Part shown: piece by piece, positions 9,098 through 27,072 of the stretch
How the letters are laid out: each line of letters begins with the position of its first letter
How positions within the stretch are numbered: position 1 is the stretch's first letter
Virus record (IMG/VR): IMGVR_UViG_3300032074_000019
Coordinates: 1 to 36,800 of that record
Source of the DNA: a virus
Taxonomy: Duplodnaviria > Caudoviricetes
Strand: one strand, 5' to 3'
DNA: 36,800 nt
The notes under the pieces: model-generated
Told to the model about the DNA's origin: nothing
The model's input: only the letters and a program-made list of their open reading frames with translations
Databases searched by the model: none
Position numbers and translations under genes: made by a program

Positions 9098-9198
9098 GGC
9101 CGGACGAGGGCTGGGTCGCGCCGAGCGAGGCGGTCTTCAGCCTGGGCCTGGACCTGGAGATCGAGCGCCTGCTGGACGAGGAGGACGGCCGTGGCTGA
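9094..9198 (+). CDS. small acidic hypothetical protein
   Basis: GTGA overlap; 34 aa; overlaps TerL start by 8 nt. Confidence 0.4.
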   Translation: MRPDEGWVAPSEAVFSLGLDLEIERLLDEEDGRG

Positions 9199-10885
9199 GT
9201 CCTGGATCGACCTGCTGGAGGCCGAGGTCCTGGAGCAGACCGGCGGCCGGGCGACCTGGCCGAGCCCGGCCGACCTCGCCGTCGCGCTGGACCCGGCGTA
9301 CCGGATCCGGGCGCACCTGGCGCACCTGTCCGCCCGGCTGGCGCAGGCCGTCACGGACGTGGAGAACGGCAAGAGCCGCTACCTCCTGGTCTCGATGCCG
9401 CCCCGGCTCGGCAAGAGCCACCTGGCCAGCACGTTCTTCCCCGCCTGGTGCCTGCACAAGCACCCGGACTGGCCGATCATGCTGCTCAGCCACGCGCCCG
9501 ACCTGGCGTCCGGCTGGGGCCGCCAGGTCCGCCGCCTGGTGGAGGAGAACCCCGTGCTGGGGCTGGGGATCGCGGCCGACGCGGGCGCCGTGACGGACTG
9601 GCAGGTCGTCCGGGACGGGGACGCGGACGGCGGCGGCGTGCTGAGCAAGAGCATCCGGCAGAGCGTCACCGGCCGCGGCGCGAAGGTGATGATCCTCGAC
9701 GACGTGGTGAAGGACTTCGCGGACGCGCACAGCGAGAAGAGCCGCGAGTTCGTGTGGAACTGGTGGACGGCGAACAGCCGGACCCGGCTGCACCCGCCGA
9801 GCCTCGTTGTGGTGATCGGCACCCGATGGCACGAGGACGACATCATCGGCCGGATGCGCAGCCCGGAGTACGAGGGCGACCCGGACCTGTGGGAGGTGAT
9901 CTCCTTCCCGGCCCTCGCCGAGGACCCGGCGGCCGTCGACCCGGTCACCCGGCGGCCGTTCGGCCCGGACCCCCTGGGCCGCAAGGAGGGCGAGCCCCTG
10001 CTCAGCCCGATCGTGGACGAGACGCCGGAGGAGGCCCTGGCCCGCTGGGCGGACATCAAGCGGAGCGTCGGCTCGTACGCCTGGGCGGCCCTGTTCCAGC
10101 AGTCGCCCTCTCCGGCCAAGGGCGGCATCTTCGACAACGACTGGTGGAAGTTCTGGCGGCCCGGGGACTGGGACGACCCGGAGACGTTCTTCGACCGGCG
10201 CCTGACCACCTGGGACTGCGCCTTCAAGGGCACCAACGACAGCGACTTCGTCGTGATCCAGGAGTGGGGCTGCCGGGGCGCGGACCGGTACCTGCTGCGG
10301 CAGGTCCGGCGGCGGATGACCTTCACGGAGACGCTGGCCGCGGGCAAGGACTTCGTGCTCGGGCCGGTGCTCCGGTACCTGGAGGACGGCGAGGCCCCGC
10401 TGGAGGACGAGACGGTCTACAACGAGACCGTCTCCGGCGTGACGATGCGCGCGGCCCGCGGCCCGCACAGCGGCGTGCACGAGCACGCGGTCGAGGACAA
10501 GGCGAACGGGACCGCCGTCCTGGACGTGCTGCGGTCCGAGGTCCCGGGCATGGTGCCGTGGAGCCCGGGCCAGGACTCCAAGGAGGCCCGGGCCCGGGCC
10601 GCGTCCCCGCAGGTCGAGGCGGGCAACGTGTACCTGCCCGCCCTGGCGGACTGGCTGCCGGACTACCTGAGCGAGATGAAGGCGTTCCCGAACGCCACGC
10701 ACGACGACCAGGTGGACGCGACCGTCATGGCCCTGCTGCGGGCCCGCGGCGGCGGCGGCGTCACGACCCTGGTGCCCACCGGGCAGGTCACCCGCGGCTT
10801 CCAGCGCGGCGGCCTGAGCGCCGTCCGGCCCGGCGTCCGCGCCCCCGCGCGGACCGGCTTCGGCGGCACCCGGCGGCGGGTCTGA
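9191..10885 (+). CDS. terL: terminase large subunit
   Basis: MPPRLGKS Walker A, MILDD Walker B, IGTRWHEDD, TWDCAFKG and HDDQVDA nuclease motifs. Confidence 0.95.
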   Translation: MAESWIDLLEAEVLEQTGGRATWPSPADLAVALDPAYRIRAHLAHLSARLAQAVTDVENGKSRYLLVSMPPRLGKSHLASTFFPAWCLHKHPDWPIMLLSHAPDLASGWGRQVRRLVEENPVLGLGIAADAGAVTDWQVVRDGDADGGGVLSKSIRQSVTGRGAKVMILDDVVKDFADAHSEKSREFVWNWWTANSRTRLHPPSLVVVIGTRWHEDDIIGRMRSPEYEGDPDLWEVISFPALAEDPAAVDPVTRRPFGPDPLGRKEGEPLLSPIVDETPEEALARWADIKRSVGSYAWAALFQQSPSPAKGGIFDNDWWKFWRPGDWDDPETFFDRRLTTWDCAFKGTNDSDFVVIQEWGCRGADRYLLRQVRRRMTFTETLAAGKDFVLGPVLRYLEDGEAPLEDETVYNETVSGVTMRAARGPHSGVHEHAVEDKANGTAVLDVLRSEVPGMVPWSPGQDSKEARARAASPQVEAGNVYLPALADWLPDYLSEMKAFPNATHDDQVDATVMALLRARGGGGVTTLVPTGQVTRGFQRGGLSAVRPGVRAPARTGFGGTRRRV

Positions 10886-11291: not shown

Positions 11292-11321
11292 GGAGTAACC
11301 GACCCTTGAAGGGGGATTTTG

Positions 11322-11816
11322 ATGCGTAGAACCATCTTCGCGCCGATCGTTGCTTTCCTGACCATCTTCGCCGTCCTGTTCGCGGCCTCGCCCGCGATGG
11401 CCTCGTACACCACCACGCCGCGGACCTTCACGTACGCCGACGTGGCGACCGAGGTCCAGTTCAACTTCCGGACCCAGGACGACGGGACCGGCGTCCGCGT
11501 CGAGTACTTCTGGCTGTTCACCAACCGGGGCTGCGACTCCCTGGAGGCCAGCGGCGGCAAGTACGACCCCGTCAAGGTCGAGATGTGGAACAGCGCGGGC
11601 ACCGCCGTCCTGGACACCGTGAACTTCGGCCCGGACGGCTGCCAGAACTACCACGACATGGAACTCCCGGGGCCGGACACCGGGTGCATCCAGATCCACG
11701 TGACGCTGAAGGCGCGGATCAACAACATGCACGACCGCTGGCTCTACGTGGGCTACAAGTTCTGCCCGAACCCGGAGCGGAGCGACTTCCTCTACATGGA
11801 GCAGGTCGAGGCCTGA
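11322..11816 (+). CDS. secreted protein with Sec signal peptide (moron-like)
   Basis: MRRTIFAPIVAFLTIFAVLFAASPAMA signal peptide; beta-rich mature part with 4 Cys; own promoter and terminator. Confidence 0.8.
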   Translation: MRRTIFAPIVAFLTIFAVLFAASPAMASYTTTPRTFTYADVATEVQFNFRTQDDGTGVRVEYFWLFTNRGCDSLEASGGKYDPVKVEMWNSAGTAVLDTVNFGPDGCQNYHDMELPGPDTGCIQIHVTLKARINNMHDRWLYVGYKFCPNPERSDFLYMEQVEA

Positions 11817-11936: not shown

Positions 11937-13574
11937 ATGGCCTCGTGGTTCCAGCGCCGCACGCCGCCCGTGACGGGCGCGGCGGTGTCCGCCTTCCGCT
12001 ACGGCGGCCCGACCTCGGATGCGTCCTCGGGCTCGACCTCGATCACGGCCGCGGCGAGCCGCGTGACGAGCAAGAAGGTCAAGCGGGGCAGGGAGGTCTC
12101 GGACTCCTGGCAGCACGAGGCGTGGGCCATGTACGACGCGGTCGGCGAACTCCGGTACGTCGCGAACGCGATCGCGGGCCGCTGCGGGCAGGCCGGGGTC
12201 TTCGTCGAGAAGGGCGGCGAGCGGCAGGACAAGCCGGAGAACGACCCGATCCTCGCGCTGATCACGCCGCAGATGGTCGAGCGCCTCGCCCTGAACATCT
12301 TCGTGGCGGGCGGCGGGTACCTGGCGGGCCTCCCCAAGGAGGAGAGCGAGCCGGACCCGAGCCCGGACCACCTGGCCCCCGAGGGCGGCACCGAGAGCGC
12401 CGCCGCGGAGTGGCTGATCCTCAGCGCGGTCGAGGTCACCAAGAGCCGGAACGGCAAGAAGGTCTCGATCCGCGGCCGGGAGTACGTCCTCGACGACATC
12501 TACCTGGAGAAGATCTGGGACCCGCACCCGGCGCACTGGGAGGAGGCGGACAGCCCCGTCCGCAGCGCCCTGCCGGTGCTCCGCGAGTTGGTCGGCCTGA
12601 CGCAGCACGTGAGCGCGCAGATCGACAGCCGCCTGGCGGGCGCGGGCGTGTACTGGATCCCGAACACGATCCTGCAGAGCGCCAAGGTCCCGGACCAGGG
12701 CGAGGGCCAGACCACGTTCAGCGACAACGCCGTCCTCAACGCGATCATGAACGCGATGCTGGTCCCGCTGGAGGACCGCAGCAACGCGGCGGCCGTCGTG
12801 CCCGCGCTGTTCGGCGCCCCGGACGACGCGATCAGCAAGATCCGCTTCGACACCTTCGCGACGCCGTTCGACGAGAACACCAAGGACCTCCGCGAGGAGG
12901 CCATCCGCCGCCTGGGCCTGGCCCTGGACGCGCCGCCGGAACTCCTGCAGGGCATGGGCGACGCGAACCACTGGGGCATGTGGCTGGTCCGCGACGAGGT
13001 CGTGCAGGCGCACGTCAAGCCCCGCCTGGAACTCATCTGGGACGCCCTGACCACCGCGTTCTACCGGCCGATCCTCCGGCAGTTGCAGGGAAAGGCCGTG
13101 CCGGGCACGCCGGAGGGCGACCCGGACACCTTCACCCTCAAGCCAGACGTGGGCGAACTCGTGCAGCGGCCGAACCGGCTGGCCGACGCGAGCCAACTGC
13201 ACGCCGTGCAGGCGGTCGGCGACAAGGCCCTCCGGACCGCGGGCGGCTTCGAGGAGAGCGACGCGCCGAGCAGCAAGGAGCGGGCGATCGCGGTCGCGCT
13301 CCAGGTGGCCACGCAGAACCCGCAACTCCTCGACAACATGACCGAGATCGTCAGCACCGTCATGGCCCTGCTGGACGGCACGCCGGAGACCGGCCCGGGC
13401 GACCTGAGCAGCGCCCGCAGGCCCGGCACCCTGGACCCCCTGGAGCCCGAGAACCGGGGCCAGGCCCCGTCCCCACGGCTGGCCCCCAACGGCACCCCGA
13501 CGCCCGGCGGGGCGGCCCCCGCGCCGATCACCGACACCGAAGGGGTCCCCGCCAGTGGCAACCCAGTCGCCTGA
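11937..13574 (+). CDS. portal protein
   Basis: WQHEAWAMYDAVGELRYVAN, WDPHP...ADSPVRSALPVLREL...SRLAGAG, AIRRLGLALDAPPELLQG..NHW motifs of actinophage portals; follows TerL. Confidence 0.85.
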   Translation: MASWFQRRTPPVTGAAVSAFRYGGPTSDASSGSTSITAAASRVTSKKVKRGREVSDSWQHEAWAMYDAVGELRYVANAIAGRCGQAGVFVEKGGERQDKPENDPILALITPQMVERLALNIFVAGGGYLAGLPKEESEPDPSPDHLAPEGGTESAAAEWLILSAVEVTKSRNGKKVSIRGREYVLDDIYLEKIWDPHPAHWEEADSPVRSALPVLRELVGLTQHVSAQIDSRLAGAGVYWIPNTILQSAKVPDQGEGQTTFSDNAVLNAIMNAMLVPLEDRSNAAAVVPALFGAPDDAISKIRFDTFATPFDENTKDLREEAIRRLGLALDAPPELLQGMGDANHWGMWLVRDEVVQAHVKPRLELIWDALTTAFYRPILRQLQGKAVPGTPEGDPDTFTLKPDVGELVQRPNRLADASQLHAVQAVGDKALRTAGGFEESDAPSSKERAIAVALQVATQNPQLLDNMTEIVSTVMALLDGTPETGPGDLSSARRPGTLDPLEPENRGQAPSPRLAPNGTPTPGGAAPAPITDTEGVPASGNPVA

Positions 13575-13929
13575 CCTCCGAGTGCTCGCGGCGGCCTGCG
13601 ACATGGCCGTGATGCGCGCCCTCGAACTCATCGGCAAGCGCGTGGCGAGGGACGGCCGGGCGCGCTTCGGCGCGATGCAGAAGTCCGGCAAGGAGTGGCA
13701 CGAGGCGCACACCATCTGGCGCCCGGAGCCGCACCACGTCGAGGCCGCCCTCTCCGGCGCCTGGGCCGTCCTGCCCCGGCTCGTGAACGAGCACGGGTGC
13801 TGCAGCCTGGTCGAGCCCGGCCTGCAGAGCCTCCTCGACGCCTATGTCCGGGAGGTCGTGTTCTCCGGCCGCCCGCACGCCTTCGAGGACCTGGAAGCGA
13901 GGCTGGCCCGTGCGGCGGCCGAGGGGTAG
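13555..13929 (+). CDS. hypothetical protein (portal-adjacent)
   Basis: 124-aa ORF, ACDMAVMRALELIGKR helix, overlaps portal end. Confidence 0.7.
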   Translation: MATQSPDLRVLAAACDMAVMRALELIGKRVARDGRARFGAMQKSGKEWHEAHTIWRPEPHHVEAALSGAWAVLPRLVNEHGCCSLVEPGLQSLLDAYVREVVFSGRPHAFEDLEARLARAAAEG

Positions 13930-14116
13930 CGCGTACCGCGGCCTCGTCGGCCGCACCGCCCGGCGCCGCTGCCCGCACTCCGACCTGACCGGCATCTACG
14001 GCGACGAGATCATCGCCGCGGCCTGGTACCGCCTGTTCTGCCGCGGCTGTCGCCGGTTCATCGACGGCCCGGTCTCCCTGGCCCAAAGCAGGGAGCGTGA
14101 GCGTGGACTCGCGTGA
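13910..14116 (+). CDS. small zinc-ribbon-like protein
   Basis: RCPHSDLTGIYGDEI...LFCRGCRRFIDGP; fills gap between neighbours; start uncertain. Confidence 0.55.
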   Translation: MRRPRGSAYRGLVGRTARRRCPHSDLTGIYGDEIIAAAWYRLFCRGCRRFIDGPVSLAQSRERERGLA

Positions 14117-15965
14117 CGCGGCGGAGGAGGCCCTGGCCGCCGTCGTCGCCGCGGAGACGCGCTCGTTCCTGCGCCAGGTGCTGGACGCCGTCGTGGCCGC
14201 GATCAAGAGCGGGCGGCACGACGCCGCGCAGCCGGTGCTGGCCCTGGGCGTCATGCTGGGCTGGTGGACGGACGCCGTGCAGGAGCGCGTGGTCGCGTCG
14301 ATCCAGACCGCCTGGCAGGCGTCCTTCGGCGTGACGGCCAAGGACAAGGCCCTCCTCGACGCGCGCAGCGACGCGATGGCCTTCCACATCACGGCCGTCA
14401 AGGACCGGCTCTCCCGGTCCGCGCTGCCGGAGATCCCGGAGGCCGCGTTCGACGAGGTCCGGCTCAGCCAGAGCGCCGCGGCCCTCGGCGGCTGGCCGAT
14501 CGACAAGCAGGCCCGGGACATCGCCGAGCGCCTGGCCTGGGAGCCGGACAAGGCGTACTGGAAGCAGGTCAAGGCCGAGGCCGAGGCCAACATCGACAAG
14601 ATCCTCGACCCGCTGGGGAAGCCCGGCACCGCGGCCCGGACGCACGCGCACAAGCACGACCCCGAGGTCAAGATGTGGCAGGACGTGCGGGCGGGCGCCG
14701 TCGACAAGATCCGCGAGGACGAGGGCGACTGGCAGGTCCGCGCGACGCGGATCGCCCGCACCGAGGCGACCGCCGCGTGGAACAGCGGCTCCCTGGCCGC
14801 GCTGGCGGCCGAGGGCCGGACGCACAAGAAGTGGCTGGCCACCAAGGACGAGCGGACCCGCGAGGACCACAAGGTCGCGGACGGCCAGGTCGTCCCGCTG
14901 GGCCGCCCGTTCCGGGTCGGCAAGAGCCTGCTGATGATGCCCGGCGACCCGGCCGCCCCGCCGTGGGAGACGGTCAACTGCCGCTGCACCGTGCTCGGCG
15001 CGGACGAGCCCCCGAAGAAGGCGATCACCGCCTCGGCGAAGGGCGCCAAGGACCAGGCCCGGGTGCCGCGCGGCAACGGCCCGGTCTCCGGCCGCTGGCT
15101 GGACATGCCCGGCACCGTGCTCGCCTCCCTTGTCGAGGAGCCGGACGACGGCTACGTGCCCGACCTCGTCCTGGCCTCGCCCGCGGACCGGCGGACGTTC
15201 AAGGAGATACACAACAAGGCGATCCCGCCGTCGTGGACCGACGTGGAGGTCGACCTGAACCCGCAGGCGTCCCTGGTGGCCCGGGGCAAGGACAAGGCGG
15301 GCCGGACCGTCCGCCTGTACAGCCAGGCGCACCAGGACCGGCAGGCGGCCAAGAAGTTCGAGCGCCTGCAGGAGGTGCACGCCGCCCTGCCGAAGATCGA
15401 GGCGAGCCTGGCCACCGTGGACGGCGACCCGACCAAGGCGGTCGCGCGGCTGATGTACCTAGAGGGGATCCGGGTCGGCAGCACAGACGACCAACTGGGT
15501 AAGGTGAAGGCGTACGGCGCCAGCACCCTCCGCGCCCAGCACGCCAGCGTCAACGAGGACGGCACCGTGCGGCTGGCCTTCGTCGCCAAGGAGGGCATCC
15601 CCGTCGAGTACCAGATCGACGACCCGGAGTTGGTAGCCCACGTCGGCAAGCGGCTCGCCGAGGACCCGGCGCCGGACGAGCCCCTGTTCCCGGGCGCGAG
15701 CGCGGCCAAGACGATGCGCCTGCTCCGGCGGGCCAGCGGCGTGGCGGGCATCAAGAACCACGACCTCCGGACCCTGCTGGCGAACCGGCTCGCGGCGGCG
15801 GCCCTGCACGACGAGACGCCGCCCCCGCCGCGGACGCCCAAGGAGATGCAGGCGCTCCGCAAGCGGGTCGGCGAGGTCGTGAGCGCACAACTCCGCAACA
15901 AGCCCGCGCAGGCGCTGTCCTCGTACATCAACCCCGCGATCTTCGCGGCGATCCGGGAGGCGTGA
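14097..15965 (+). CDS. MuF-like minor head protein fused to type IB DNA topoisomerase
   Basis: MuF: RIARTE...KKWLATKDERTREDH..ADGQ...PGDP...NCRC; TopIB: IPPSWTDV, GKDKAGR..Y, IRVG, FVAKEG, HDLRT, LRNKP, SSYINP. Confidence 0.85.
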   Translation: MSVDSRDAAEEALAAVVAAETRSFLRQVLDAVVAAIKSGRHDAAQPVLALGVMLGWWTDAVQERVVASIQTAWQASFGVTAKDKALLDARSDAMAFHITAVKDRLSRSALPEIPEAAFDEVRLSQSAAALGGWPIDKQARDIAERLAWEPDKAYWKQVKAEAEANIDKILDPLGKPGTAARTHAHKHDPEVKMWQDVRAGAVDKIREDEGDWQVRATRIARTEATAAWNSGSLAALAAEGRTHKKWLATKDERTREDHKVADGQVVPLGRPFRVGKSLLMMPGDPAAPPWETVNCRCTVLGADEPPKKAITASAKGAKDQARVPRGNGPVSGRWLDMPGTVLASLVEEPDDGYVPDLVLASPADRRTFKEIHNKAIPPSWTDVEVDLNPQASLVARGKDKAGRTVRLYSQAHQDRQAAKKFERLQEVHAALPKIEASLATVDGDPTKAVARLMYLEGIRVGSTDDQLGKVKAYGASTLRAQHASVNEDGTVRLAFVAKEGIPVEYQIDDPELVAHVGKRLAEDPAPDEPLFPGASAAKTMRLLRRASGVAGIKNHDLRTLLANRLAAAALHDETPPPPRTPKEMQALRKRVGEVVSAQLRNKPAQALSSYINPAIFAAIREA

Positions 15966-15966
15966 C

Positions 15967-18900
15967 GTGGCGACCACCTTCACCCCCGAGCAGGACGCGG
16001 CCCTGGCCGACCTGCTCGCCACGACCGAGTACGTGGACGCGAGCCCGACCGAGGACACCGACCCGGACAACGGCCTGCCCGCGCTCGCGGAGCGGCTGGC
16101 GGGCATCGGCCCGTGGGACCCCGGCTTCGAGGACGCCGTCGACGAGGCGATCGCGGCCGTCCGCGCCAACCTGGACGGCGAGGTCCGGGACGACACCGTG
16201 AACGCCCTGCAGGCGCTGCTCCTGGTGAACTGGGGCCTGCCGCCGGAGGAGGCCGCCGTGACGGCCAGCGCGGCGGGCCAGCACTGGAAGGACGAACTCC
16301 GCATCCCCAAGGGGAACGGCGACCACTCCGGCCAGTGGACGTTCACGCCCTGGAAGTGGATGGACACGCTGCAGGCCGAGGCCGAGAAGGTCGGCAAGGT
16401 CATCGGCGTCGACGACATCGAGGAGTACAACGCGAAGGTCCGCGCCAAGTTGGACGTGGCCCGGACCGTGCTGAACGCCCTCGACAAGGACGAGGCCAGC
16501 ACGCACCCCGGCGACCCGATCGTGACGACCTCCTCCGCGGTCGCGGGGCAGTTGTTCCTGGACGCCGCGGTCGCCGCGAACGACATGGGCCTGCCCAGCA
16601 AGAACCTGGAGGAGGCCGCCAAGAGCACCCTCGCGTTCGGCAAGTACGACTGGACGCTGTTCGACGAGAGCAGCGACATCGGCGCCAACGACCCGGACGA
16701 GGACTTCGGCGAACTCCTGACCGAGGACACCGACATCGGCGCGGGCGACATCCCCGACAACCACCAGGACGACACGCCGGTTGCCGAGGACGTCAAGAAG
16801 GCCAAGGACCTGAAGCCCGGCGACACCGTCGTCACATACGACGAGGAGGGCAGCCCGTACGCCGTCGTGCTGGACGACGTGCAGCCGGTCGCGGACACCG
16901 CCACCGGCGAGCCGCAGATCGAGGTCACGGACCAGGACGGCGCGTCCTGGAACTACGGCCCCGACGACGAGGTCGAGATCATGGCGGGCGACGACGAGGC
17001 CGAGAACGCCGCCGCGCTGAACGAGGACGTGGGTCCGAGCAAGACGGCCAAGGACCTGAAGCCCGGCGACCAGATCCTCGTCGGCTCGGAGGAGGACGAC
17101 ACCCTGGCCTTCACCGAGGTCTCGGACGTGCAGGTCGGAGCGGACGGCGTCATCGAGGTCACCGACATCGAGGGCCTGACGTACCACTTCGCCCCGGACC
17201 AGGCCGTGTCCGTGGAGCCCGCCGACGACGACCTGGAGGACTGGGAGAAGGCCCTCCTGGCGCCGGACACGTCGGGCGCGGTCCACAAGGACGCCAAGGA
17301 CCTGAAGGTCGGCGACCTGTTCTGGGACGGCGCCGGGCACGAGCAGAGCGTCAAGGAGATCCACCAGAACCACAAGGGCCAGGTCGTCGTCACGGACGGC
17401 AACGGAGCGGAGCACGCGTTCCACCCGGAGTACATGGTGCCGATGAGCCCCGACAGCCCGGCGGCGCTGCCGCCGAAGAAGGCCGGGGACATCGTGGCCG
17501 GGGATACCGTCATGGTGCACGACTTCCCCGTCGAGGTCGCCGAGGTCGCGCTCATCGAGGACCCCTGGGGCGGCAAGCCCTACGTCCAGGTCACGTCGAC
17601 GGGCGAGCAGACGTACGGCTTTGACCCGGACGACGACGTGCCGCTCGTCAAGGCCGCGCCCGAGGCCAAGAACCCCAGCGGCTACGAGGACCCGGAGGAC
17701 GTGCCCGTGGGCACGAGCGTCTGGCTGCACGACGCGGCCTCCGGGGACGAGCCCGAGAAGTACACCAAGGTCGCCGAGAACGCGTGGACCAGCGACGGCC
17801 TCGAAGAGGACGTGGAACTCACGGACGGCGTCATGAGCGGCGGCTGGAACCTCGTCGTCGCGCCGCCGGAGCCCGTGCCCGCCGCGACCCGGGCGGACTT
17901 CCTCGGCGCGGAGTCCTTCACGCCCGCGGAGAAGGCGGCGGTCAAGGCGTACGGGATGCCGCACGGCTACAAGACCGTGAACCCCTACCTGAACAACAAC
18001 GGCCAGGTCTACGACACCTCGATCCCCGGGCTGCGCCCGGCCACGGCGCAGGAGAAGGCGTTCGCGGAGAAGACGATCAAGGACCTGGACTCCGCGTTCG
18101 GGAAGGCCGCCCCGCTGGACCACGAGGTCACCGTCGTCCGGCGCTCCGGCGCCGAGCAGTTCGGCACCGACCCGCTGGCCCCCGGCGACACGTTCACCAA
18201 CGCGGCCTACCTCAGCACGGCCCTGCCCGGCGGCAAGAAGAACGGCTACGGGTACGAGAGCAAGCCGGTCCAGTGGGAGATCACCCTCCCCAAGGGCGCC
18301 AAGGCCCTGCAGGGCAACGCGCACGAGAACGAGATCCTGCTGCCCCGCGGCTCGCGGTTCGTGGTCGAGAGCGACACGACCGACGCGGCCGGGCTGCGGC
18401 ACCTGAAGGTCCGCGTCGTGCTGGAGAAGCCGAAGCCGGTCGGGGACACGGGCGGCTACGCCTCGGCCGCGGACGTGCCGGTCGGCGAGAGCGTGCTCCT
18501 CCTGCCCGTGGAGAGCGGCGGCACGCCGGTCAAGTACACCAAGGTCGGCGACGACGAGTGGTCGAGCGTCGACCCGAAGACCGGCGAAGCCGTCACCGAC
18601 AGCGACGCCGACCTGGCCGGGGCGTGGGACACCCTGTTCACGCAGGAGGAGGGCGCGCCGGTCACGCCCGGCATGGTCGAGGTCGACGTGCCGATCGTCG
18701 GCAAGGAGATCCAGCCCGGCGACACCCTGGACCTCTCGAAGTCCGTCATCCTCAAGAAGAGCGGCGGCAAGTTGGTCCAGTCCACGGGCGTCAACCCGAC
18801 CGTGGCGGAGGTCAAGCACGGCCCGAAGTGGGCGAACGTCGTCACGACGACCGGCCAGAAGTTGTGGGTCCCGACCGACGAGCCGATCACCGCCAAGCGG

Positions 18901-20256
18901 AAGGTCGCGCCGAGCACGACCACGTACCCGACGACCTCGCTGCTGCCGGGCGACACCCTGACGCTGGACGGCCCGGTGCTGAAGAAGTCCGCGGGCAAGT
19001 TGGTCCCGGCCGAGGGCGCCAAGCAGGGCAAGCACGACGAGAGCCCCGTCATCGCGACCATCAAGCACGGCCCGAAGTGGACCGAGGTCACGACGACCTC
19101 GGGCCAGAAGTTGTGGATCCAGTCCGGCACCGAGGTCACCGCGCAGCGGGTGCCCGGGGCGGCGACGCCGGGCGCGGTCACCCCGGCCGTCAAGGGCAGC
19201 GGGGAGTGGAAGAACAAGCCCGCCCCGGTCGCGCCGCCGGAGCCCGTGGAGCCGCAGGCGGGCGTGCCCCAGAAGGACGCCTTCGACGCCTGGCTGGTGG
19301 CCGTCAAGGAGCGGTACGCGGCCAACCCGAACAAGGCCAAGGGCTCCCTGGAGGAGAGCGCCAACTGGCCCAAGGTCCAGTCGATCCTCAACGGCGACCC
19401 GGCGCTGGCCAAGACCGCGATCGACAGCCTGCACAAGAACCAGTACCTCGACGACGACCTGCGGGCGCAGGCCGAGAAGATCTACGCCGACGCGGCCGTC
19501 ATCAAGCCGGGCGAGTTCGAGAAGTACGCGAAGGCCCACGCCGCCTGGAAGCAGGCGATGGAGGGCTACGAGGCCGACCTCGCCGCGTGGCAGAAGGACA
19601 ACCCGACCTCGCTGAAGGGGATGAGCGGGGCGAAGGTCTTCACCAGCAACGAGGCGGGCGTCGCCTGGGCGAACAAGACCCTCAAGGTGCCGATCCCGGA
19701 CGACGCCAAGGAGATGGTCAAGAGCATGAAGGGCTCCTCCGGCTACGTCAACGGCCAACTGTGGAACAACGGCGGCGCGGTCCCGGCCTCGGTCCAGACC
19801 CACGTCGCGAGCCTGGACAAGGCGATGACCCCGCTGCCCGAGGACATCTACCTGTTCCGCGGCACGAACATGAACGAGTTCAAGGGGATCGGCAGTGTCG
19901 AGGACCTGAAGAAGGCGGTCGGCACGACGTTCGTGCAGCACGCGTACCAGCCGACCGGCCTCGGCGTGGACACGGCGTTCTCCGGCAGCCCGGTGCAGAT
20001 CGTCTACCGGGCGCCGAAGGGCACGCTGGGCGTGTGGGCGCGGCCGATCAGCCCGCCGCCGTTCAGCGCCGAGCGGGAGTACATGCTCGGCCGGAACACG
20101 AAGTACTTCATCCACAAGGTCACGCAGAAGAACGGCCAGACCTTCGTGGAGGCCGAGATCATCCCGCCGGGCCACCCGGACCCGAGCGGCCAGCCGGGGC
20201 AGGGGCTCACGCACAAGGTCGGCACCCACTTCGCGAGGTTGCGCCTCCCGGCGTAA
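15967..20256 (+). CDS. large multidomain protein with two VIP2/Alt-like ADP-ribosyltransferase domains and SH3/KOW-like repeats
   Basis: ART1 (about 17930-18420): VVRR, YLSTA, HENEILLPRG; ART2 (about 19700-20165): LFRG, YQPTG, AEREYML; repeats AKDLKPGD. Confidence 0.8.
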   Translation: MATTFTPEQDAALADLLATTEYVDASPTEDTDPDNGLPALAERLAGIGPWDPGFEDAVDEAIAAVRANLDGEVRDDTVNALQALLLVNWGLPPEEAAVTASAAGQHWKDELRIPKGNGDHSGQWTFTPWKWMDTLQAEAEKVGKVIGVDDIEEYNAKVRAKLDVARTVLNALDKDEASTHPGDPIVTTSSAVAGQLFLDAAVAANDMGLPSKNLEEAAKSTLAFGKYDWTLFDESSDIGANDPDEDFGELLTEDTDIGAGDIPDNHQDDTPVAEDVKKAKDLKPGDTVVTYDEEGSPYAVVLDDVQPVADTATGEPQIEVTDQDGASWNYGPDDEVEIMAGDDEAENAAALNEDVGPSKTAKDLKPGDQILVGSEEDDTLAFTEVSDVQVGADGVIEVTDIEGLTYHFAPDQAVSVEPADDDLEDWEKALLAPDTSGAVHKDAKDLKVGDLFWDGAGHEQSVKEIHQNHKGQVVVTDGNGAEHAFHPEYMVPMSPDSPAALPPKKAGDIVAGDTVMVHDFPVEVAEVALIEDPWGGKPYVQVTSTGEQTYGFDPDDDVPLVKAAPEAKNPSGYEDPEDVPVGTSVWLHDAASGDEPEKYTKVAENAWTSDGLEEDVELTDGVMSGGWNLVVAPPEPVPAATRADFLGAESFTPAEKAAVKAYGMPHGYKTVNPYLNNNGQVYDTSIPGLRPATAQEKAFAEKTIKDLDSAFGKAAPLDHEVTVVRRSGAEQFGTDPLAPGDTFTNAAYLSTALPGGKKNGYGYESKPVQWEITLPKGAKALQGNAHENEILLPRGSRFVVESDTTDAAGLRHLKVRVVLEKPKPVGDTGGYASAADVPVGESVLLLPVESGGTPVKYTKVGDDEWSSVDPKTGEAVTDSDADLAGAWDTLFTQEEGAPVTPGMVEVDVPIVGKEIQPGDTLDLSKSVILKKSGGKLVQSTGVNPTVAEVKHGPKWANVVTTTGQKLWVPTDEPITAKRKVAPSTTTYPTTSLLPGDTLTLDGPVLKKSAGKLVPAEGAKQGKHDESPVIATIKHGPKWTEVTTTSGQKLWIQSGTEVTAQRVPGAATPGAVTPAVKGSGEWKNKPAPVAPPEPVEPQAGVPQKDAFDAWLVAVKERYAANPNKAKGSLEESANWPKVQSILNGDPALAKTAIDSLHKNQYLDDDLRAQAEKIYADAAVIKPGEFEKYAKAHAAWKQAMEGYEADLAAWQKDNPTSLKGMSGAKVFTSNEAGVAWANKTLKVPIPDDAKEMVKSMKGSSGYVNGQLWNNGGAVPASVQTHVASLDKAMTPLPEDIYLFRGTNMNEFKGIGSVEDLKKAVGTTFVQHAYQPTGLGVDTAFSGSPVQIVYRAPKGTLGVWARPISPPPFSAEREYMLGRNTKYFIHKVTQKNGQTFVEAEIIPPGHPDPSGQPGQGLTHKVGTHFARLRLPA

Positions 20257-20267
20257 CATGCTACAAT
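20239..20267 (+). promoter_or_regulatory. consensus-like sigma70/SigA promoter
   Basis: TTGCGC-N17-TACAAT with extended -10 TG, overlapping the ART gene end. Confidence 0.65.
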
Positions 20268-20289
20268 GGCAGAAAGAAAGGAGACGACC

Positions 20290-20643
20290 GTGACCGAGCA
20301 GGCCCCCGAGCAGCGCCACCCGATCTTCGCCTCGATGGTTGTGAGCACGCCGGACGACTACCCGGAGCCCAAGCCGGGCCCGGCGACCCGGTGGGTGCTG
20401 ACGACGCCGGACAAGGCGCCGGTCGGCGTCCTCGTCTTCAACGACAGTGGGCTCTCCTGGACCCCGGCCGCGACCGAGGAGCCGGACCCGCAGGAGTACG
20501 CCGCGGAACTCCTCTCGTTCATCCGCGGCAACCGCGAGGAGGGCACGGCGCAGGCCGACCTCCTGGCCGCGATCAGGGACGCCTACACGGGCGACCTGAC
20601 CGAGGACCAGGTCCGGTTCTTCCCACCGAAGAAGAAGGGCTAG
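20290..20643 (+). CDS. small acidic protein, candidate ART immunity/partner
   Basis: AAAGGAG RBS before GTG 20290; immediately follows the ART gene, with its own promoter. Confidence 0.7.
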   Translation: MTEQAPEQRHPIFASMVVSTPDDYPEPKPGPATRWVLTTPDKAPVGVLVFNDSGLSWTPAATEEPDPQEYAAELLSFIRGNREEGTAQADLLAAIRDAYTGDLTEDQVRFFPPKKKG

Positions 20644-20647
20644 GGCC

Positions 20648-22072
20648 GTGGAGGACAAGGAGATCGCGGCCGTCGTCGCCCTGTTCGGCGAGCGGGAGGC
20701 CGCGGACGCGCACGAGTTCGAGTGGCTGCTGCGCCGCCACGGGGGCGCCGAGTTCGCCCTGCCCAAGGACGAGGCCCGGCCCGCGCCGAAGGCACCCGCC
20801 AAGGGCCCGAAGCAGACCCGGACCCCCGCCAAGGCCCCGACCAAGGCGCCCGCCAAGAAGGGCGGCAGCGGCGGCTGGGACGAGAGCCAGCACAAGCGCG
20901 CGGACAAGGGCAGCCCCGGCGGCGGCCGGTTCATCCCCAAGGACGGCGGCGGCGGCCAGGGCAAGCCCGCGCCCAAGGCGAAGCCGAAGCCCAAGAGCGG
21001 CGGCACCGGGCACGGCCGCCCGAAGGCGCCGCAGAAGCCGAAGATGACCAAGCAGGAGAAGGTCAACGCCCTCGTCAAGGGCGTGCTGAAGGCGCTGGAC
21101 GAGGTCCTGGGCCAACTCACCAGCAAGCAGGCGCAGGCCCTCATCAAGCGGATCAAGGCGAACGCGACCGCGTTCATCGAGGGCCAGGCGCACGCCCCGA
21201 CGCACCACAACCCCAAGGGCGGCGGTGGGGGCAAGGGCGGCCCCTCCGTCACCAGCAGGCCCGCGCCCAAGGGCGGCGGCCCCAAGGTCACCAAGGGGCC
21301 CGGAGGGACCACCAGCAGGCCCGCGCCGAAGAGCCACCCGAAGGGCGGTGGCAGCACCAAGACGAGCAGCGTGGCCGGGATCGTCGCCAGCGTGCAGGGC
21401 CTCCTGAAGACGTTCGGCCACGCCATGAAGCCGGAAGCGAGGAAGAAGTTGCAGGACGCCGTGAACGCGCTCAGCAAGGCCGCGGCCGAGACCGAGGCGA
21501 TGGCCGGGGACACCGAGACCTTCGCGCCCGGCGACGACTACAGCGAGACCGTCTGCATCATGGCGATCCCGGCCGAGGACGACCCCTGCCACGGCGTCGG
21601 CGACCCGGACAAGCACGCGACGATCCTCTACTTCGGCGACCGGAGCCAGAGCGCCGACCCGGAGCGGATCGAGGGCTCCCGGGCCCTGTTCGAGAACGTG
21701 CTGCGGCTTGCGGCCCAGGAGGTCGAGCCGTTCACCGCGAAGGTCACCGGCATCGAGGCCCTGGGGCACGACGACGAGCCCGCGCAGGTCTGGCTGCTCG
21801 ACAGCCCGGAACTGCACGCCCTGTTCGGCGAGATCCCCGAGATCGACAGCGAGATCGCCTCCATGTACGAGGACGCGGACGCGACCCGGTACCCGGAGTA
21901 CAAGCCACACGTCACGATCGTCTACGGCCCGGAGGCCCCGCCGGAGGCCCGGCAGGTGACGGAGATCCGGTTCGACCGGCTCAGCCTGTGGTGGGGCGAC
22001 GAGCACGTCGACTTCCCCCTCGGCTCGGCTGAGTTCGACGCCATCCTCTCGCACTTCGGCGTGGTGGTCTGA
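20648..22072 (+). CDS. Lys/Gly/Pro-rich protein with C-terminal 2H phosphoesterase domain
   Basis: two HxT motifs: KHATILYFG (21614) and YKPHVTIVYG (21908); basic low-complexity N-terminal half. Confidence 0.8.
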   Translation: MEDKEIAAVVALFGEREAADAHEFEWLLRRHGGAEFALPKDEARPAPKAPAKGPKQTRTPAKAPTKAPAKKGGSGGWDESQHKRADKGSPGGGRFIPKDGGGGQGKPAPKAKPKPKSGGTGHGRPKAPQKPKMTKQEKVNALVKGVLKALDEVLGQLTSKQAQALIKRIKANATAFIEGQAHAPTHHNPKGGGGGKGGPSVTSRPAPKGGGPKVTKGPGGTTSRPAPKSHPKGGGSTKTSSVAGIVASVQGLLKTFGHAMKPEARKKLQDAVNALSKAAAETEAMAGDTETFAPGDDYSETVCIMAIPAEDDPCHGVGDPDKHATILYFGDRSQSADPERIEGSRALFENVLRLAAQEVEPFTAKVTGIEALGHDDEPAQVWLLDSPELHALFGEIPEIDSEIASMYEDADATRYPEYKPHVTIVYGPEAPPEARQVTEIRFDRLSLWWGDEHVDFPLGSAEFDAILSHFGVVV

Positions 22073-22161: not shown

Positions 22162-25110
22162 ATGACGACCGAGTGCCTTCCCTGCCAGGAGAGCCTGGCC
22201 CGCAAGGACATCCAGGACAGCGTGCCGGACACCGACGCATCGCAGAGCGCGGAGTGGTCCGGCCCGATCGGCATGGAGAACCAGCGGACCGGTGACGGCC
22301 GCCTCATCGAGGCCAACGCCCTGCGCTGGGACACCCTGCCCGTCCCGCTGCGGTGGGCCATGCAGGACTTCGGCGCGCACGACGGCGCGTACGTGGTCGG
22401 CAAGATCGAGAGCATCGAGCGCCTGTCCTACGAGGAGGCGAACGAGCGGCTGGAGAGCACCGGCCGCGACGCGCTCCCCGAGGCGTTCAAGGACGCCGTC
22501 ATCGTGTGGGGCGAGGGCTCCCACGACCTGGGCAGCGAGTACGGCCGCGAGGCGTTCCGGCAGGCCGACGAGGGCCTGACGCCCGGCGTCAGCATGGACC
22601 TCGACGACATCTTGGTCAAGGAGGACGACGGCGACTCCTTCACCATCCTGGAGGGCCGCGTCCGCGCGGCCACGCAGGTCGCGATCCCCGCCTTCGAGGG
22701 CGCCCGGATCTCCGTCGCCAAGGACGCCCGCGAGGCGTTCGACTCCGACGAGCAGCGGCTGGCGGACGCCGACCTCCTCGTCGACGAGGAGTCCTTCAAC
22801 TGGGTCGAGGACGCGGGCGGCCTGCCGCCGTACATCAAGCGGATCCAGAAGCACCTGGAGAAGAAGGGCATGGACGAGAGCCGTGCCATCGCGACCGCGG
22901 TCAACGTGGTCAAGAAGATGTGCGCGACCGGCGACACCAACTTCCCCGGCTCCCAGCAGGTCAACGCGGGCTCGCGCGCCGAGGCGTGCGCGGCCGTCGC
23001 GGACTGGGAGAAGAAGAAGGCCGAGCACGGCACCGAGAGCATCGTGGCCAGCGCGGGCTGGCTGCCCCCGGCCGAGTGGTTCCAGGACCCGCACCTGGAC
23101 GGCCCGACCGGGCTGACCGTGGACGACGACGGCCGCGTCTACGGCCACATCGCCCTGTGGGGTACCTGCCACGTGGCGAGCCCGCAGGGCCGCCAGGTCT
23201 GCACGCAGCCGCCGCACTCGCCCTCCAAGTACAGCGCGGGCTTCCACCTCGGCGTGACCAACACCACCGAGGGCCCGCTGCCGACCGGCAAGATCACCCT
23301 CGACACCCTGCACGCCGGGCCGAAGTTGTCGTTCAGCGACACGGTCTACCACTACGAGCACACCGGGAACGTCGCGGCGCACGTGCGCGCCGGGGAGGAC
23401 GCGCACGGGATCTGGGTGGCGGGCGCGGCGCGGCCGGGCGTCGACCTGGACGTGCTCCGCGCCGCCCCCGTCTCCGGCGACTGGCGCACCATCGGCGGCA
23501 GCCTGGAGATGGTGGCGGCCCTGTCCGTCAACGTGCCCGGCTTCCCCGTGCCCCGGGCCCAGGCCCTCGTCGCCAGTGGCTCGATCCACAGCCTGGTCGC
23601 GTCCGGCATGGTCGAGGTCGAGGAGCGGACCGAGGAGGTCCTGGACCTGCCGTGGGACGACGACGCCGTCCTGTCCCTGCGGGACCGCTTCCGGGCCCTG
23701 GACCGCAAGGAGAAGGCCGACGCCCTGGCGGCCAAGGTGAGCCGCCTGCACGCCCTGGAGCGGGTGCGCAGGCTGCGGGCGAGCCTGCCCCAGGCGGCCT
23801 TCGCGGGCCACGACGACCAGTGGCGGGTGCCCAAGGGCAACCCGGACGGCGGGCGCTACATCGACATGCCGGACGCTGGGGTCAAGGACCTGGAGACCAC
23901 CCTGCAGGACGCCCTCGACGGCGGTGGCGTGGACGACAACGCCGCGGCCGACATCGGGCAGAGCCTCGACAACGCGGTGCAGGCGTCGGAGAAGGCGTCC
24001 GACGCCCTGCGGAACAACGACGGCGCCGGGGCCACGGCTGCGGCGACCGAGGCGGACAAGCACCTGTCCGACCTGGAGGCCAAGTTGCAGGACGCGGCCG
24101 ACAGCGGCGCGATCGACGAGAACACGGCGGCCACGATCGGCGAGAAGTTGGACGTGGCCCGGACCAGCGTGGGCGTCGTGAAGGACAGCGACCTCTCCCT
24201 GCTCGGCGACGACAGCGTCAACGAGGGCGGCACGGGCGACATCGGCGGAGACGCCAAGCCCGGCAAGGGCGCGGGCGACATCGGCGGCGGGGACGCCCCG
24301 GCGGAGCACCCGGCGGGCCCCGCAGGCGAGCACCTGAGCAAGGCCGAGGCCGGGCTCCAGCACGCCGCGGACAGCGGCATGGACGAGGGCCAGGCCGCGC
24401 AGATGGGCGACGCGCTGGACAACGCCCACGACGCGATCACGGCGCACAACTCCAACCCGACCGAGGCCAACAAGCAGGCCGCGCACGACGCGATCAGCAA
24501 CCTGGAGGCGCACGCCGGGAACGCGGCCGACAGCGGCGCGATGGACGAGGGCACCGCGGCCGGGGTCGGCGAGGCCCTGGACAACGCGCACGCCGCCGTC
24601 GACGCACACCACGAGGCCAACGCCCCGAAGGCCCCGGCCGCGCCGGACGCGGGCCCGCAAGGCAGCGCGGCGCAGCAGGCGTCGACCAAGGCGCAGGACA
24701 CCGCCTCCGCGCTGGAGGCCAACCTGCAGGACGCCGCAGACGGCGGTATGGACGAGGAGTCCGCGGCCCAGGTTGGCGAGCACCTGGACGCCTTCCGAAG
24801 CAGCATGGACAAGTTGCACGAGGGGATCCAGGGCGGCAACTACAACGCCCAGGACCTGGCCGACGCGCAGACCAACCTCAGCGCGCTGGAGGCGTCGATG
24901 ATGGACGCCGCCGACAAGCCGGGCATGAGCGACGAGACGGCCAACGGCCTCGGCGTCGCCCTCGACGACATGTTCAACGACCTCGGTACGCTGGCGCAGT
25001 CCCTCCAGGGCTCTAGCGAGCCGCCCCCGTTCGCCACCCGGAAGTACGTCCGGCAGTGGCTCGGCCGCCGCGGCATCCGCCTCGGCACGTTCAGCCGCAG
25101 GGAGGGGTGA
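22162..25110 (+). CDS. capsid maturation (prohead) protease, multidomain, with acidic helical C-terminal repeats
   Basis: WSGPIGMEN..TGDGR..., AHDGA (His), GVSMDLD (Ser), VAIPAFEGA; second domain WFQDP..DGRVYGHIALWGTCH; position just upstream of capsid genes. Confidence 0.8.
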   Translation: MTTECLPCQESLARKDIQDSVPDTDASQSAEWSGPIGMENQRTGDGRLIEANALRWDTLPVPLRWAMQDFGAHDGAYVVGKIESIERLSYEEANERLESTGRDALPEAFKDAVIVWGEGSHDLGSEYGREAFRQADEGLTPGVSMDLDDILVKEDDGDSFTILEGRVRAATQVAIPAFEGARISVAKDAREAFDSDEQRLADADLLVDEESFNWVEDAGGLPPYIKRIQKHLEKKGMDESRAIATAVNVVKKMCATGDTNFPGSQQVNAGSRAEACAAVADWEKKKAEHGTESIVASAGWLPPAEWFQDPHLDGPTGLTVDDDGRVYGHIALWGTCHVASPQGRQVCTQPPHSPSKYSAGFHLGVTNTTEGPLPTGKITLDTLHAGPKLSFSDTVYHYEHTGNVAAHVRAGEDAHGIWVAGAARPGVDLDVLRAAPVSGDWRTIGGSLEMVAALSVNVPGFPVPRAQALVASGSIHSLVASGMVEVEERTEEVLDLPWDDDAVLSLRDRFRALDRKEKADALAAKVSRLHALERVRRLRASLPQAAFAGHDDQWRVPKGNPDGGRYIDMPDAGVKDLETTLQDALDGGGVDDNAAADIGQSLDNAVQASEKASDALRNNDGAGATAAATEADKHLSDLEAKLQDAADSGAIDENTAATIGEKLDVARTSVGVVKDSDLSLLGDDSVNEGGTGDIGGDAKPGKGAGDIGGGDAPAEHPAGPAGEHLSKAEAGLQHAADSGMDEGQAAQMGDALDNAHDAITAHNSNPTEANKQAAHDAISNLEAHAGNAADSGAMDEGTAAGVGEALDNAHAAVDAHHEANAPKAPAAPDAGPQGSAAQQASTKAQDTASALEANLQDAADGGMDEESAAQVGEHLDAFRSSMDKLHEGIQGGNYNAQDLADAQTNLSALEASMMDAADKPGMSDETANGLGVALDDMFNDLGTLAQSLQGSSEPPPFATRKYVRQWLGRRGIRLGTFSRREG

Positions 25111-25338: not shown

Positions 25339-27072
25339 ATGGCCCGCAACAAGGACACCCAGTCCGACCAGATCACCATCCCCGAGGACCTGAGCACGCT
25401 CAGCGACTCGGACCTGACCGCGCTGCACGACACCGCGGTCACCGCCTTCCAGGCCATGCTGCCGGAGGACGGCTCCGCGCCGGACGACGCCACGCTGGAG
25501 GCGCTGAGCGCCCTGGCCGACGGCGTCGAGGCCCTGAAGGGCGAGGTCGCCGAGCGCGACAACGCCGCCCTGGCCCGCTCCGGCAAGGCCAAGGAGTTGG
25601 CCGACAAGGTCCTCTCCGCGGGCGAGACCGCCCAGGCCGTGAAGGACGAGGAGGAGGCCGCCGAGACCCCCGAGGAGGAGGCCGCCGAGCCCGCCGACGA
25701 GAACGACGACGAGGTCCCCGCGGAACTCGTCGCGGGCGCCAAGAAGCGCGCCCCGATCAACATCAACCTCTCCGGCCTCCGCAAGGACCGGCCCGCCAAG
25801 AAGGAGACGCCGGTGGACGCCGGACCCAAGAAGATCGGGTTCGCGGCACAGGGCGCCGCGGGCTTCAACGTCGGCACGGAGATGACGATCCGTGACATGG
25901 CCGAGAGCATCAACAGCCGCCTCGGCGGCTTCAACGCCTCGGCCTACATGGCGGCCCGCTCGAAGGGCAACCGGCAGACCGAGCGGTTCTCGATCGCCCG
26001 CCTGCCCCGCCAGTTCGACGAGAAGGCGGTCGTCAACAGCGAGGACCCGAAGGCCGCGATGGAGTTCGCGACCCGCGAGTCGGCGCTGCCCGGCGGCAGC
26101 CTCGTCGCCTCCGGCGGCTGGTGCGCCCCGTCCGAGACGCTGTACGACCTGGTGGACATCAGCGAGGCCGCGAACCTCGTGTCGGTGCCCGAGATCCAGA
26201 TCAACCGCGGCGGCGTGCGGCACACCCTCGGCCCGGACTACCGCGAGGTCTTCGCCGACACCGGCTTCTGCTACACCGAGGCCGAGGACATCGCCGGGGA
26301 CTACGACGGCGCGGGCGGCGGCACCAAGCCCTGCGTGACCGTCCCGTGCCCGGACTTCGACGAGGTCCGCCTCGGCTACTGCGGCGTCTGCATCGGGGCC
26401 GGGCTGCTCCAGCAGCGCGGCTACCCCGAGGTCATCGAGGACTACGTGGGCAAGACCCTCAACGCCCACGCGCACCGCATGTCCGCGTCCGTCATCAACA
26501 GCATGGTGGCCGACAGCACCGCCGTCGTCTTCCCCGGCCCGCAGGCCGGGGCGACCGCGCCGCTGCTCACCGCGATCGACCTGCAGGCGACCCACTACCG
26601 GGCCGTCAACCGCATGTCGGACAACGCCTCCCTGGAGGTCATGCTGCCGACCTGGACCAAGACGGTCGTCCGGGCCGACCTCGCCCGGCGCCTCGGCGTC
26701 GACCTGCTGGACGTGAGCGACCAGCGGATCGCGGGCTGGTTCGCCGCCCGCAAGGTCAACCCGCAGTACGTCGTGGACTGGCAGGACATCGCCACCACGG
26801 CCGCGAGCGGCTTCACCGCCGCCCCGACCGGCGTGGACTTCCTGCTCTACGCCGCGGGCACGTTCGTCAAGGGCGTGACCGAGTCGATCACGCTGGAGAA
26901 CATCTACGACAGCGTGCTCCTGGGCACCAACGACTACACGGCGCTCTTCACCGAGGACCCGTTCCTCGTCCTGAAGCGCAACCACGACAGCCGTGTCGTC
27001 ACGGTGCCGGTGACGCCGGACGGCGCGACCCACATCGGGATCGCGATCGCCGGGAACGGCACCGGCTCCTGA
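25339..27072 (+). CDS. major capsid (hexamer) protein with N-terminal scaffold region
   Basis: acidic coiled-coil N-terminus then SLVASGGWCAPSETLYDL...PEIQINRGGV...KPC...CP.FDEVRL; AGGAGG RBS. Confidence 0.85.
   Translation: MARNKDTQSDQITIPEDLSTLSDSDLTALHDTAVTAFQAMLPEDGSAPDDATLEALSALADGVEALKGEVAERDNAALARSGKAKELADKVLSAGETAQAVKDEEEAAETPEEEAAEPADENDDEVPAELVAGAKKRAPININLSGLRKDRPAKKETPVDAGPKKIGFAAQGAAGFNVGTEMTIRDMAESINSRLGGFNASAYMAARSKGNRQTERFSIARLPRQFDEKAVVNSEDPKAAMEFATRESALPGGSLVASGGWCAPSETLYDLVDISEAANLVSVPEIQINRGGVRHTLGPDYREVFADTGFCYTEAEDIAGDYDGAGGGTKPCVTVPCPDFDEVRLGYCGVCIGAGLLQQRGYPEVIEDYVGKTLNAHAHRMSASVINSMVADSTAVVFPGPQAGATAPLLTAIDLQATHYRAVNRMSDNASLEVMLPTWTKTVVRADLARRLGVDLLDVSDQRIAGWFAARKVNPQYVVDWQDIATTAASGFTAAPTGVDFLLYAAGTFVKGVTESITLENIYDSVLLGTNDYTALFTEDPFLVLKRNHDSRVVTVPVTPDGATHIGIAIAGNGTGS

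Follow-up and report, generated by a model that had tools for sequence, protein, structure and literature searches.

A MuF minor head protein joined to a type IB topoisomerase in an uncultured phage of actinobacterial type, with a likely inhibitor peptide encoded directly behind it

Why would a tailed phage join a topoisomerase to one of its minor head proteins? The locus that raises this question comes from IMG/VR record IMGVR_UViG_3300032074_000019, which is about 66% complete. The window, that is, the whole stretch of DNA analyzed here, covers positions 1-36,800 (36.8 kb) of that record and belongs to an uncultured phage of actinobacterial type; positions written as x..y below are those of features on its plus strand. 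A sequence-only reading of the window had proposed that a MuF minor head protein is fused to an intact type IB topoisomerase (TopIB) and that the enzyme is carried in the virion.

The gene in question (14097..15965) is a single open reading frame of 622 aa with a GTG start, and a model of the full-length protein was made. Its MuF minor head region (14115..15014; aa 7-306) was recognized by PHROG families 2468, 859 and 3517 and contains the Phage_Mu_F core (14733-14993, plus strand; aa 213-299; Pfam PF04233, E 5e-11). A two-domain TopIB follows (15168..15962; aa 358-622), with an N-terminal beta domain first and the catalytic domain second; Pfam matched Topoisom_I at aa 415-583 (E 6e-8, above the cut-off) and Top1B_N_bact (PF21338) at aa 364-399 (E 9e-4, below the cut-off). 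The motifs IPPSWTDV and GKDKAGR, on which the proposal had partly relied, are both found in this frame. An assembly error, the most trivial way to obtain such a gene, was checked and ruled out, because the GC content at third codon positions (GC3) is even across the junction (1.00 for MuF, 0.97 for TopIB) and because the same fusion occurs at 74-78% identity on independent contigs, represented by four protein clusters (P0003-P0006) and the viral contig L003. Comparison with L003 gave dN 0.20 and dS 0.62 for the TopIB part and dN 0.21 and dS 0.48 for the MuF part, dS being probably too low given the GC content. The values for the TopIB part indicate that it is under purifying selection.

The TopIB pentad has been defined as Arg, Lys, Arg, His/Asn and Tyr (PMC2647283), and the domain contains all five as R459, K498, R558, N601 and Y610. 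Their codons begin exactly where the earlier reading had placed them: Arg459 at 15471..15473 (vaccinia R130, Deinococcus R137), Lys498 at 15588..15590 (vaccinia K167), Arg558 at 15768..15770 (vaccinia R223), Asn601, the fourth residue of bacterial type, at 15897..15899 (Deinococcus N280), and the nucleophile Tyr610 at 15924..15926 (Deinococcus Y289). All five align with the catalytic columns of the D. radiodurans TopIB (2f4q), which is the best sequence match in the PDB (E 1e-14; variola TopIB, E 3e-5), and the catalytic set is indeed intact. Among 198 aligned domains, a set that includes some duplicates and, having been gathered by similarity, is biased toward conserved sequences, the two Arg, the Lys and the Tyr were invariant (198/198 each), and the full R-K-R-N-Y was present in 193/198, the number in which Asn was kept.

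A feature absent from the earlier reading is His555 (15759..15761), which occupies the position of vaccinia Lys220; this position was His in 43/198 domains and Lys in 155/198. The Lys220-equivalent belongs to the pentad in PMC2666729, where it is cited as important for vaccinia catalysis, and not to that in PMC2647283; the position is an auxiliary one. Because His555 stands in for a Lys that is important in vaccinia catalysis, the activity may be lower. The TopIB domain is likely to be active as an enzyme.

His is typical of tyrosine recombinases at the Lys220 position (PMC2666729), and His555-Asp-Leu-Arg558 has the HxxR form by which those enzymes are recognized. The sequence-only reading had named a tyrosine recombinase as the best structural match among the outcomes that would overturn it, and fold searches were run with an AlphaFold model of aa 341-622 (mean pLDDT 92). 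Foldseek against the PDB returned 22 matches at E<=0.001, and every match shown (ranks 1-22, one similar chain omitted) was a TopIB, headed by variola 2h7f (E 3e-12, TM 0.73); the first recombinase-fold protein appeared at E 6e-3. A search of viral structures in BFVD gave eleven matches at E<=0.001, eight of them topoisomerases and the other three unnamed, with integrases beginning at 1.5e-3. The small N-terminal beta domain is present as three strands in the model, and the alignment to 2h7f extends over the whole length. Neither a recombinase-type N-terminal domain nor a recombinase as the nearest fold was found: there was no integrase match in Pfam, and recombinases came at E>=6e-3 in the PDB and >=1.5e-3 in BFVD. 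Identity as a tyrosine recombinase was rejected, since both fold searches rank TopIBs ahead. Taken together, Pfam, the active-site alignment, the fold search and the independent contigs bear out that the open reading frame is a MuF domain joined to a complete TopIB of the bacterial/poxvirus type.

The gene lies in a head module with the order terminase, portal, MuF-TopIB, a 1429-aa protein with two ADP-ribosyltransferase (ART) domains, a 125-aa gene, 2H phosphoesterase, protease/scaffold and major capsid protein. An N-terminal MuF domain within this module (Pfam, PHROG) is a feature that the fusion shares with MuF polymorphic toxins. Upstream are the terminase large subunit (9191..10885; Pfam, PHROG) and the portal protein (11937..13574; phrog_776, E 8e-97), separated by a 165-aa gene (11319-11816) that has a signal-peptide-like start, an atypical GC content at the first codon position and no family match. 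A 124-aa gene at 13555-13929 is a split-off portal tail matching the C-terminal part of phrog_776 (positions 521-618), and a gene of similar size occupies this place in L003 and in Gordonia phage Savbucketdawg.

Directly downstream of the fusion, the 1429-aa cargo gene (15967..20256; phrog_3895) has its ART domains at about 17911-18378 and 19732-20172 (PF03496, E 1e-29, two stretches). Its product also has repeated acidic beta-rich units, and its L003 counterpart shows one ART match. The 125-aa gene that follows (20266..20643) is conserved in L003, has no family match in Pfam or PHROG, and is possibly an immunity gene. The 2H phosphoesterase (20648..22072; PF13563, E 2e-7; Acb1 (anti-CBASS), E 1e-3, below the cut-off) carries a tag-like stretch near its start and is likely a further head cargo; the N-terminal half of the protein is rich in Lys, Gly and Pro. 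The module continues with the prohead protease/scaffold (22162..25110; phrog_18402, E 2e-52) and the major capsid hexamer protein (25339..27072; phrog_777). Past its protease region (23818-25110), the protease/scaffold gene encodes a tag and long acidic helical repeats, similar to those in L003, L005 and gp58 of Microbacterium phage Leaf, a Wizardvirus. Farther on, the N-terminus of a tail-region protein (33786-35576) matches the carbohydrate-binding module CBM96 (E 1e-10). No integrase was found among the scanned window ORFs (Pfam, PHROG), and no RNA polymerase of the phage's own in the record, which is just 66% complete.

A total of 877 records of cultured phages, almost all of them actinophages, match the capsid protein of the window, the best being Leaf at 44%. 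The TopIB domain, by contrast, matches one of 50,697 phage records, the unrelated Burkholderia jumbo phage BCSR5 (29% identity), and no cultured phage with the cassette of the window was found among these records. Savbucketdawg has the gene order of the window with an ART fused to MuF in the slot of TopIB. Because the capsid relatives lack TopIB and Savbucketdawg carries MuF-ART, we conclude that TopIB is an optional cargo outside the core packaging machinery, placed in a slot that is filled elsewhere by a host-modifying enzyme.

Beyond cultured phages, a search of 1.84 billion cluster representatives (50% identity) gave 268 matches to the domain at E<=1e-30 and 1783 at E<=1e-10, the latter with cellular enzymes to be expected among them. 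Of the best 150 representatives, Pfam assigned a MuF domain to 16, a portal domain to 13 and a protease-like domain to three; the remaining fusion partners among these 150 were ART, 2H, InPase, NUDIX and a papain-fold deamidase, mostly effector types given for phage-delivered proteins in Iyer 2017 (PMC5512222). Alignment-based scans of viral contigs found TopIB loci, and a single-protein scan found none. Dropping identical C-termini and loci with <3.5 kb upstream reduced 127 viral TopIB loci to 84, of which 83 were queried. The N-terminal extension was at least 200 aa long at 65 loci, and at 52 of these 65 it matched the PHROG category 'head and packaging' (E<=1e-8; 22 MuF-type, 28 portal, 2 other), with 13 having no PHROG match; a head gene lay immediately upstream of 7 of the 18 TopIBs that lack a long extension, both denominators still holding some near-duplicates. 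TopIB is thus fused to MuF, portal and other effector domains in phages with portal and terminase genes, the arrangement of a virion-delivered effector. The proposal that the topoisomerase would be virion-borne gains good support from this gene context, in which MuF and portal fusions recur. Two MuF-TopIB proteins (P0014, P0069) have an intein in the MuF domain near an NCRC motif.

A FastTree tree of 254 domains, rooted on two cellular-type sequences, groups the phage TopIB domains apart from 6 cellular-type sequences, with MuF and portal fusions scattered across it; many of its tips are unlabelled, and its deep support is low. The GTDB genomes scanned contained no member of the TopIB clade of the window. 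A second scan yielded four cellular-type TopIBs and one phage-type TopIB in a Deltaproteobacteria MAG. The phage-type enzyme (L072) lies with a partner peptide, described below, on a 62-kb contig, a host hint for the low-GC group.

Another feature that the earlier reading did not include is an acidic peptide encoded behind TopIB. The next gene in the window starts 1 nt past the TopIB stop. Its first 95 aa carry a net charge of -18, and the first 35 of them (15967..16071), at the start of the ART cargo, are the candidate TopIB inhibitor. Two types of peptide occur after the TopIB stop, often overlapping it. Profiles of these peptides matched within 150 nt past the TopIB stop at 84 of 105 non-redundant loci, 57 of the 105 having been used in training; among those held out, 27/48 matched. 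Four cellular-type TopIB loci, BCSR5 and two cultured relatives gave no significant match. When the profile was built from other phages only, aa 8-34 of the next gene scored best of 1320 six-frame window pieces (16 bits, E 5e-4), a weak match in that the training peptides were chosen by eye after the leader had been seen and in that it falls below 12 bits in the whole-segment count. The score of the window leader was exceeded by 0/2000 shuffles, and L003 was matched at the same place. A profile from low-GC phages alone did not match the window leader, the L004 and L005 leaders had no significant score with the partner profile, and a search of the ESM Atlas with the leader gave no usable match.

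The partner is free in many relatives, whereas the window has no free small ORF after TopIB, the partner-like peptide being fused to the next gene. It is also joined to a longer downstream protein in L079, L080, L085, L088, L107 and L132; what is new here is its fusion to the start of the 1429-aa double-ART gene. Because the acidic partner lies downstream, the locus has a layout like that of a toxin with its immunity gene; the peptide is a likely inhibitor of TopIB. Other arrangements were also seen. A portal-TopIB protein has the acidic partner motif as part of its own C-terminal region (L066:8847-8990); a second partner type, acidic and with an LGFDP-like ending, follows TopIB in a large subgroup of mostly portal fusions (L097, L116-L153); and extra partner-type peptides (L146:912 and L147:241, minus strand) are encoded on the strand opposite to TopIB, at a distance of about 5.9 kb from its gene. 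No statistical support was found for a tag-plus-helix module split by the TopIB cassette, with aa 36-97 of the next gene as its second half.

The third feature that had not been noted is a linker resembling a cut site. The sequence ITASA (15024..15038; aa 310-314), a candidate prohead-protease site singled out by motif enrichment, lies between MuF and TopIB, and the linker around it (aa 304-315) has pLDDT <50 in the full-length model. Six head proteins of the window together contain seven copies of the motif [LIVM][TVS]A[SA][AGW], where 1.1 would be expected, and 13 other proteins contain one. Besides ITASA, its copies are found in the portal (ITAAA at aa 36), in the cargo gene (VTASA), in the protease/scaffold (three copies, with one tag) and in the major capsid protein (LVASG at aa 255; 26101-26115). 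The motif was first derived from the window itself and then checked in Leaf and Savbucketdawg, whose head proteins contain 7 copies against 0.7 expected and 8 against 0.6, respectively (0/1000 shuffles each); each phage has one copy outside them. A copy stands directly before GWCAP in all three capsid proteins. This is the pattern that a prohead-protease site would give, and we infer that the motif is likely such a site, although the Savbucketdawg MuF-ART fusion contains no copy. The PDB contains no sequence relative of the window capsid protein.

Just past the candidate site, ahead of TopIB, is a tag, QxRVPxGNGxxSGRWxDxP (15054..15110; aa 320-338), that recurs in the next gene and in the protease gene. 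A second pair of candidate cut site and tag (16258..16338; VTASA at aa 98-102, tag at aa 110-124) lies behind the acidic leader in the next gene, and L003 is arranged likewise. The tag is also found at the start of the stand-alone TopIBs P0029 and P0030 and again ahead of cargo domains; it may therefore serve as an address label.

What could such an enzyme do for the phage? TopIB nicks a single strand by way of a 3'-phosphotyrosine, and it needs no divalent ions. It relaxes positive and negative supercoils without ATP (PMC2647283). In SPP1, one or two copies of the MuF protein gp7 bind the portal in each capsid (PMC5576092), MuF proteins are believed to be present at 2-3 copies and to bind viral DNA (PMC12226406), and the main use of vaccinia TopIB is in early transcription (PMC12188299). 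These three properties favour an enzyme that is packaged, released and delivered, and packing into the head and delivery are likely because TopIB is joined to MuF and a likely inhibitor peptide starts the next gene. We reasoned as follows. The partner peptide would inhibit TopIB while it is made late in infection, and MuF would load TopIB into the head. The prohead protease would then free TopIB, a cut after ITASA leaving the tag near the new N-terminus, and TopIB would part from its partner, which lacks a tag and would be severed from the protein that carries it. Ejected with the DNA, TopIB would relieve supercoiling in the first transcription of the incoming genome. This is our preferred reading, and we put the chance that TopIB is packaged, cut free, held off by its partner and delivered to relax the incoming genome at about even. 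Among the roles suggested earlier, action after delivery fits best, whereas a role in packaging is weakened because 877 cultured records are related by capsid and only one of 50,697 has a TopIB match. The host has topoisomerases of its own and cultured relatives grow without the domain; any benefit is therefore conditional.

The toxin-type neighbours suit a host-directed role equally well. The delivered TopIB could relax or nick the host chromosome or plasmids and so damp transcription and defence, with the acidic peptide as the immunity protein of a MuF toxin-immunity pair. TopIB does trade slots with ART and other effectors, and by analogy the toxicity of P. aeruginosa TopIB on expression in E. 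coli (PMC2666729) may be relevant. We nevertheless consider this unlikely, since MuF would supply about 1-3 copies per head, few against host gyrase, TopIB normally religates, and there is no sign of a poisoned, nick-accumulating variant except His555, which is present in 43/198 domains.

Direct fusion to portals (28/65 loci) and to MuF (22/65) could instead point to an enzyme that remains in the head, tethered to MuF or portal, and releases twist during packaging or ejection; MuF binds both portal and DNA (PMC5576092, PMC12226406). However, the 877 cultured capsid-related records package DNA without TopIB, the candidate cut site separates MuF from TopIB, tagged stand-alone TopIBs occur (P0029, P0030, L004), and a partner resembling an inhibitor would keep the enzyme silent during assembly, all of which make a tethered enzyme improbable.

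Vaccinia TopIB performs strand transfer, and delivery with a linear genome would place the window enzyme at DNA ends, where transfer through the 3'-phosphotyrosine, not relaxation, could close nicks, shield genome ends or connect them to each other, or resolve junctions once the DNA has entered. The HxxR of His555-Arg558, as in tyrosine recombinases (PMC2666729), would suit such a role, but the fold, the N-terminal beta domain and Asn601 are all of TopIB type with recombinases at E>=6e-3, and 155/198 relatives with the same architectures have Lys at the His555 position, leaving this a slim chance. Least probable of all is a late enzyme that is never delivered: it would act on replicating or concatemeric DNA inside the cell that makes it, and its place in the head operon would serve timing only. 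The jumbo phages Motura and PaBG do have a gene for a TopIB-like enzyme, which PMC7824862 treats under DNA recombination and topology, and 13/65 extensions have no PHROG match, but at most loci the enzyme is covalently fused to portal, MuF or protease and could hardly escape being built into the prohead.

The packaged, released and delivered enzyme can be put in a wider form, which we offer only tentatively: many unrelated tailed phages may inject a TopIB that is addressed by MuF, portal or tag and silenced by an acidic inhibitor, and here, with the inhibitor riding on the ART cargo, one protease step might free both enzymes and sort tagged cargo from untagged inhibitor. Phage DNA topology just after injection is thought to rest on host enzymes. 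The 268 clusters (50% identity, E<=1e-30), mostly of uncultured phages with head-tied TopIB, suggest a widespread need to control twist at entry. Hundreds of cultured and genetically tractable relatives without the domain make gain-of-cassette tests practical. If the partner truly inhibits TopIB, it would represent a small natural protein inhibitor of this enzyme, a kind that we did not find in print, and the combination of cut site and tag could be a general route for loading proteins into actinophage heads.

Our literature search found no paper on a head-linked phage TopIB, most subscription journals lying outside its coverage; effectors fused to MuF and portal have already been described (PMC5512222). 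The locus adds an actinophage-type lineage with many cultured relatives, the partner-ART fusion, a candidate protease site whose motif was also checked in cultured phages, and the replacement of Lys by His in the active site.

Compared with known systems, the locus resembles MuF polymorphic toxins (Jamet 2017, PMC5576092) and the MuF- and portal-fused effectors of Iyer 2017 (PMC5512222) in its MuF N-terminus with a variable C-terminal enzyme, in its position between portal and capsid genes with a small acidic module directly behind, and in sharing its slots with ART, 2H and InPase. It differs from them in that the partner is fused to the next cargo instead of being free; no integrase was found in the window. 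A topoisomerase cargo is not named in the main texts of PMC5512222 and PMC5576092, nor in six supplements of Jamet 2017. The topoisomerase I of jumbo phages (Motura, PaBG, Lu11, phiRSL1 and BCSR5) has the same phage TopIB fold (BFVD, E 2e-13 and 1e-8), but the passages of PMC7824862 that deal with it place it under recombination and topology, not head cargo. The BCSR5 enzyme has His in the pentad, its locus gave no partner match, and no head genes are annotated nearby.

Bacterial TopIBs (D. radiodurans 2f4q/3m4a; P. aeruginosa, PMC2666729) are likewise small two-domain enzymes with R-K-R-N-Y, that is, with Asn, and nine residues from Asn to Tyr, and they provide the best PDB sequence match; the window enzyme differs in being encoded by a phage, fused to a head protein and followed by an acidic partner, and in having His at the Lys220-equivalent. 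Poxvirus TopIB (variola 2h7f, vaccinia) is the best fold match, with the difference that the window enzyme has Asn in place of His265 and Arg406 at the position of Tyr70 in the CCCTT-reading motif. Poxviruses also bring an RNA polymerase of their own, whereas the 66%-complete record of the window showed none. As an early-transcription enzyme carried in the virion (PMC12188299), poxvirus TopIB may still serve as the functional model, and the locus described here, if the reading of a packaged and delivered enzyme is true, would be a phage counterpart of the packaging of TopIB by poxviruses.
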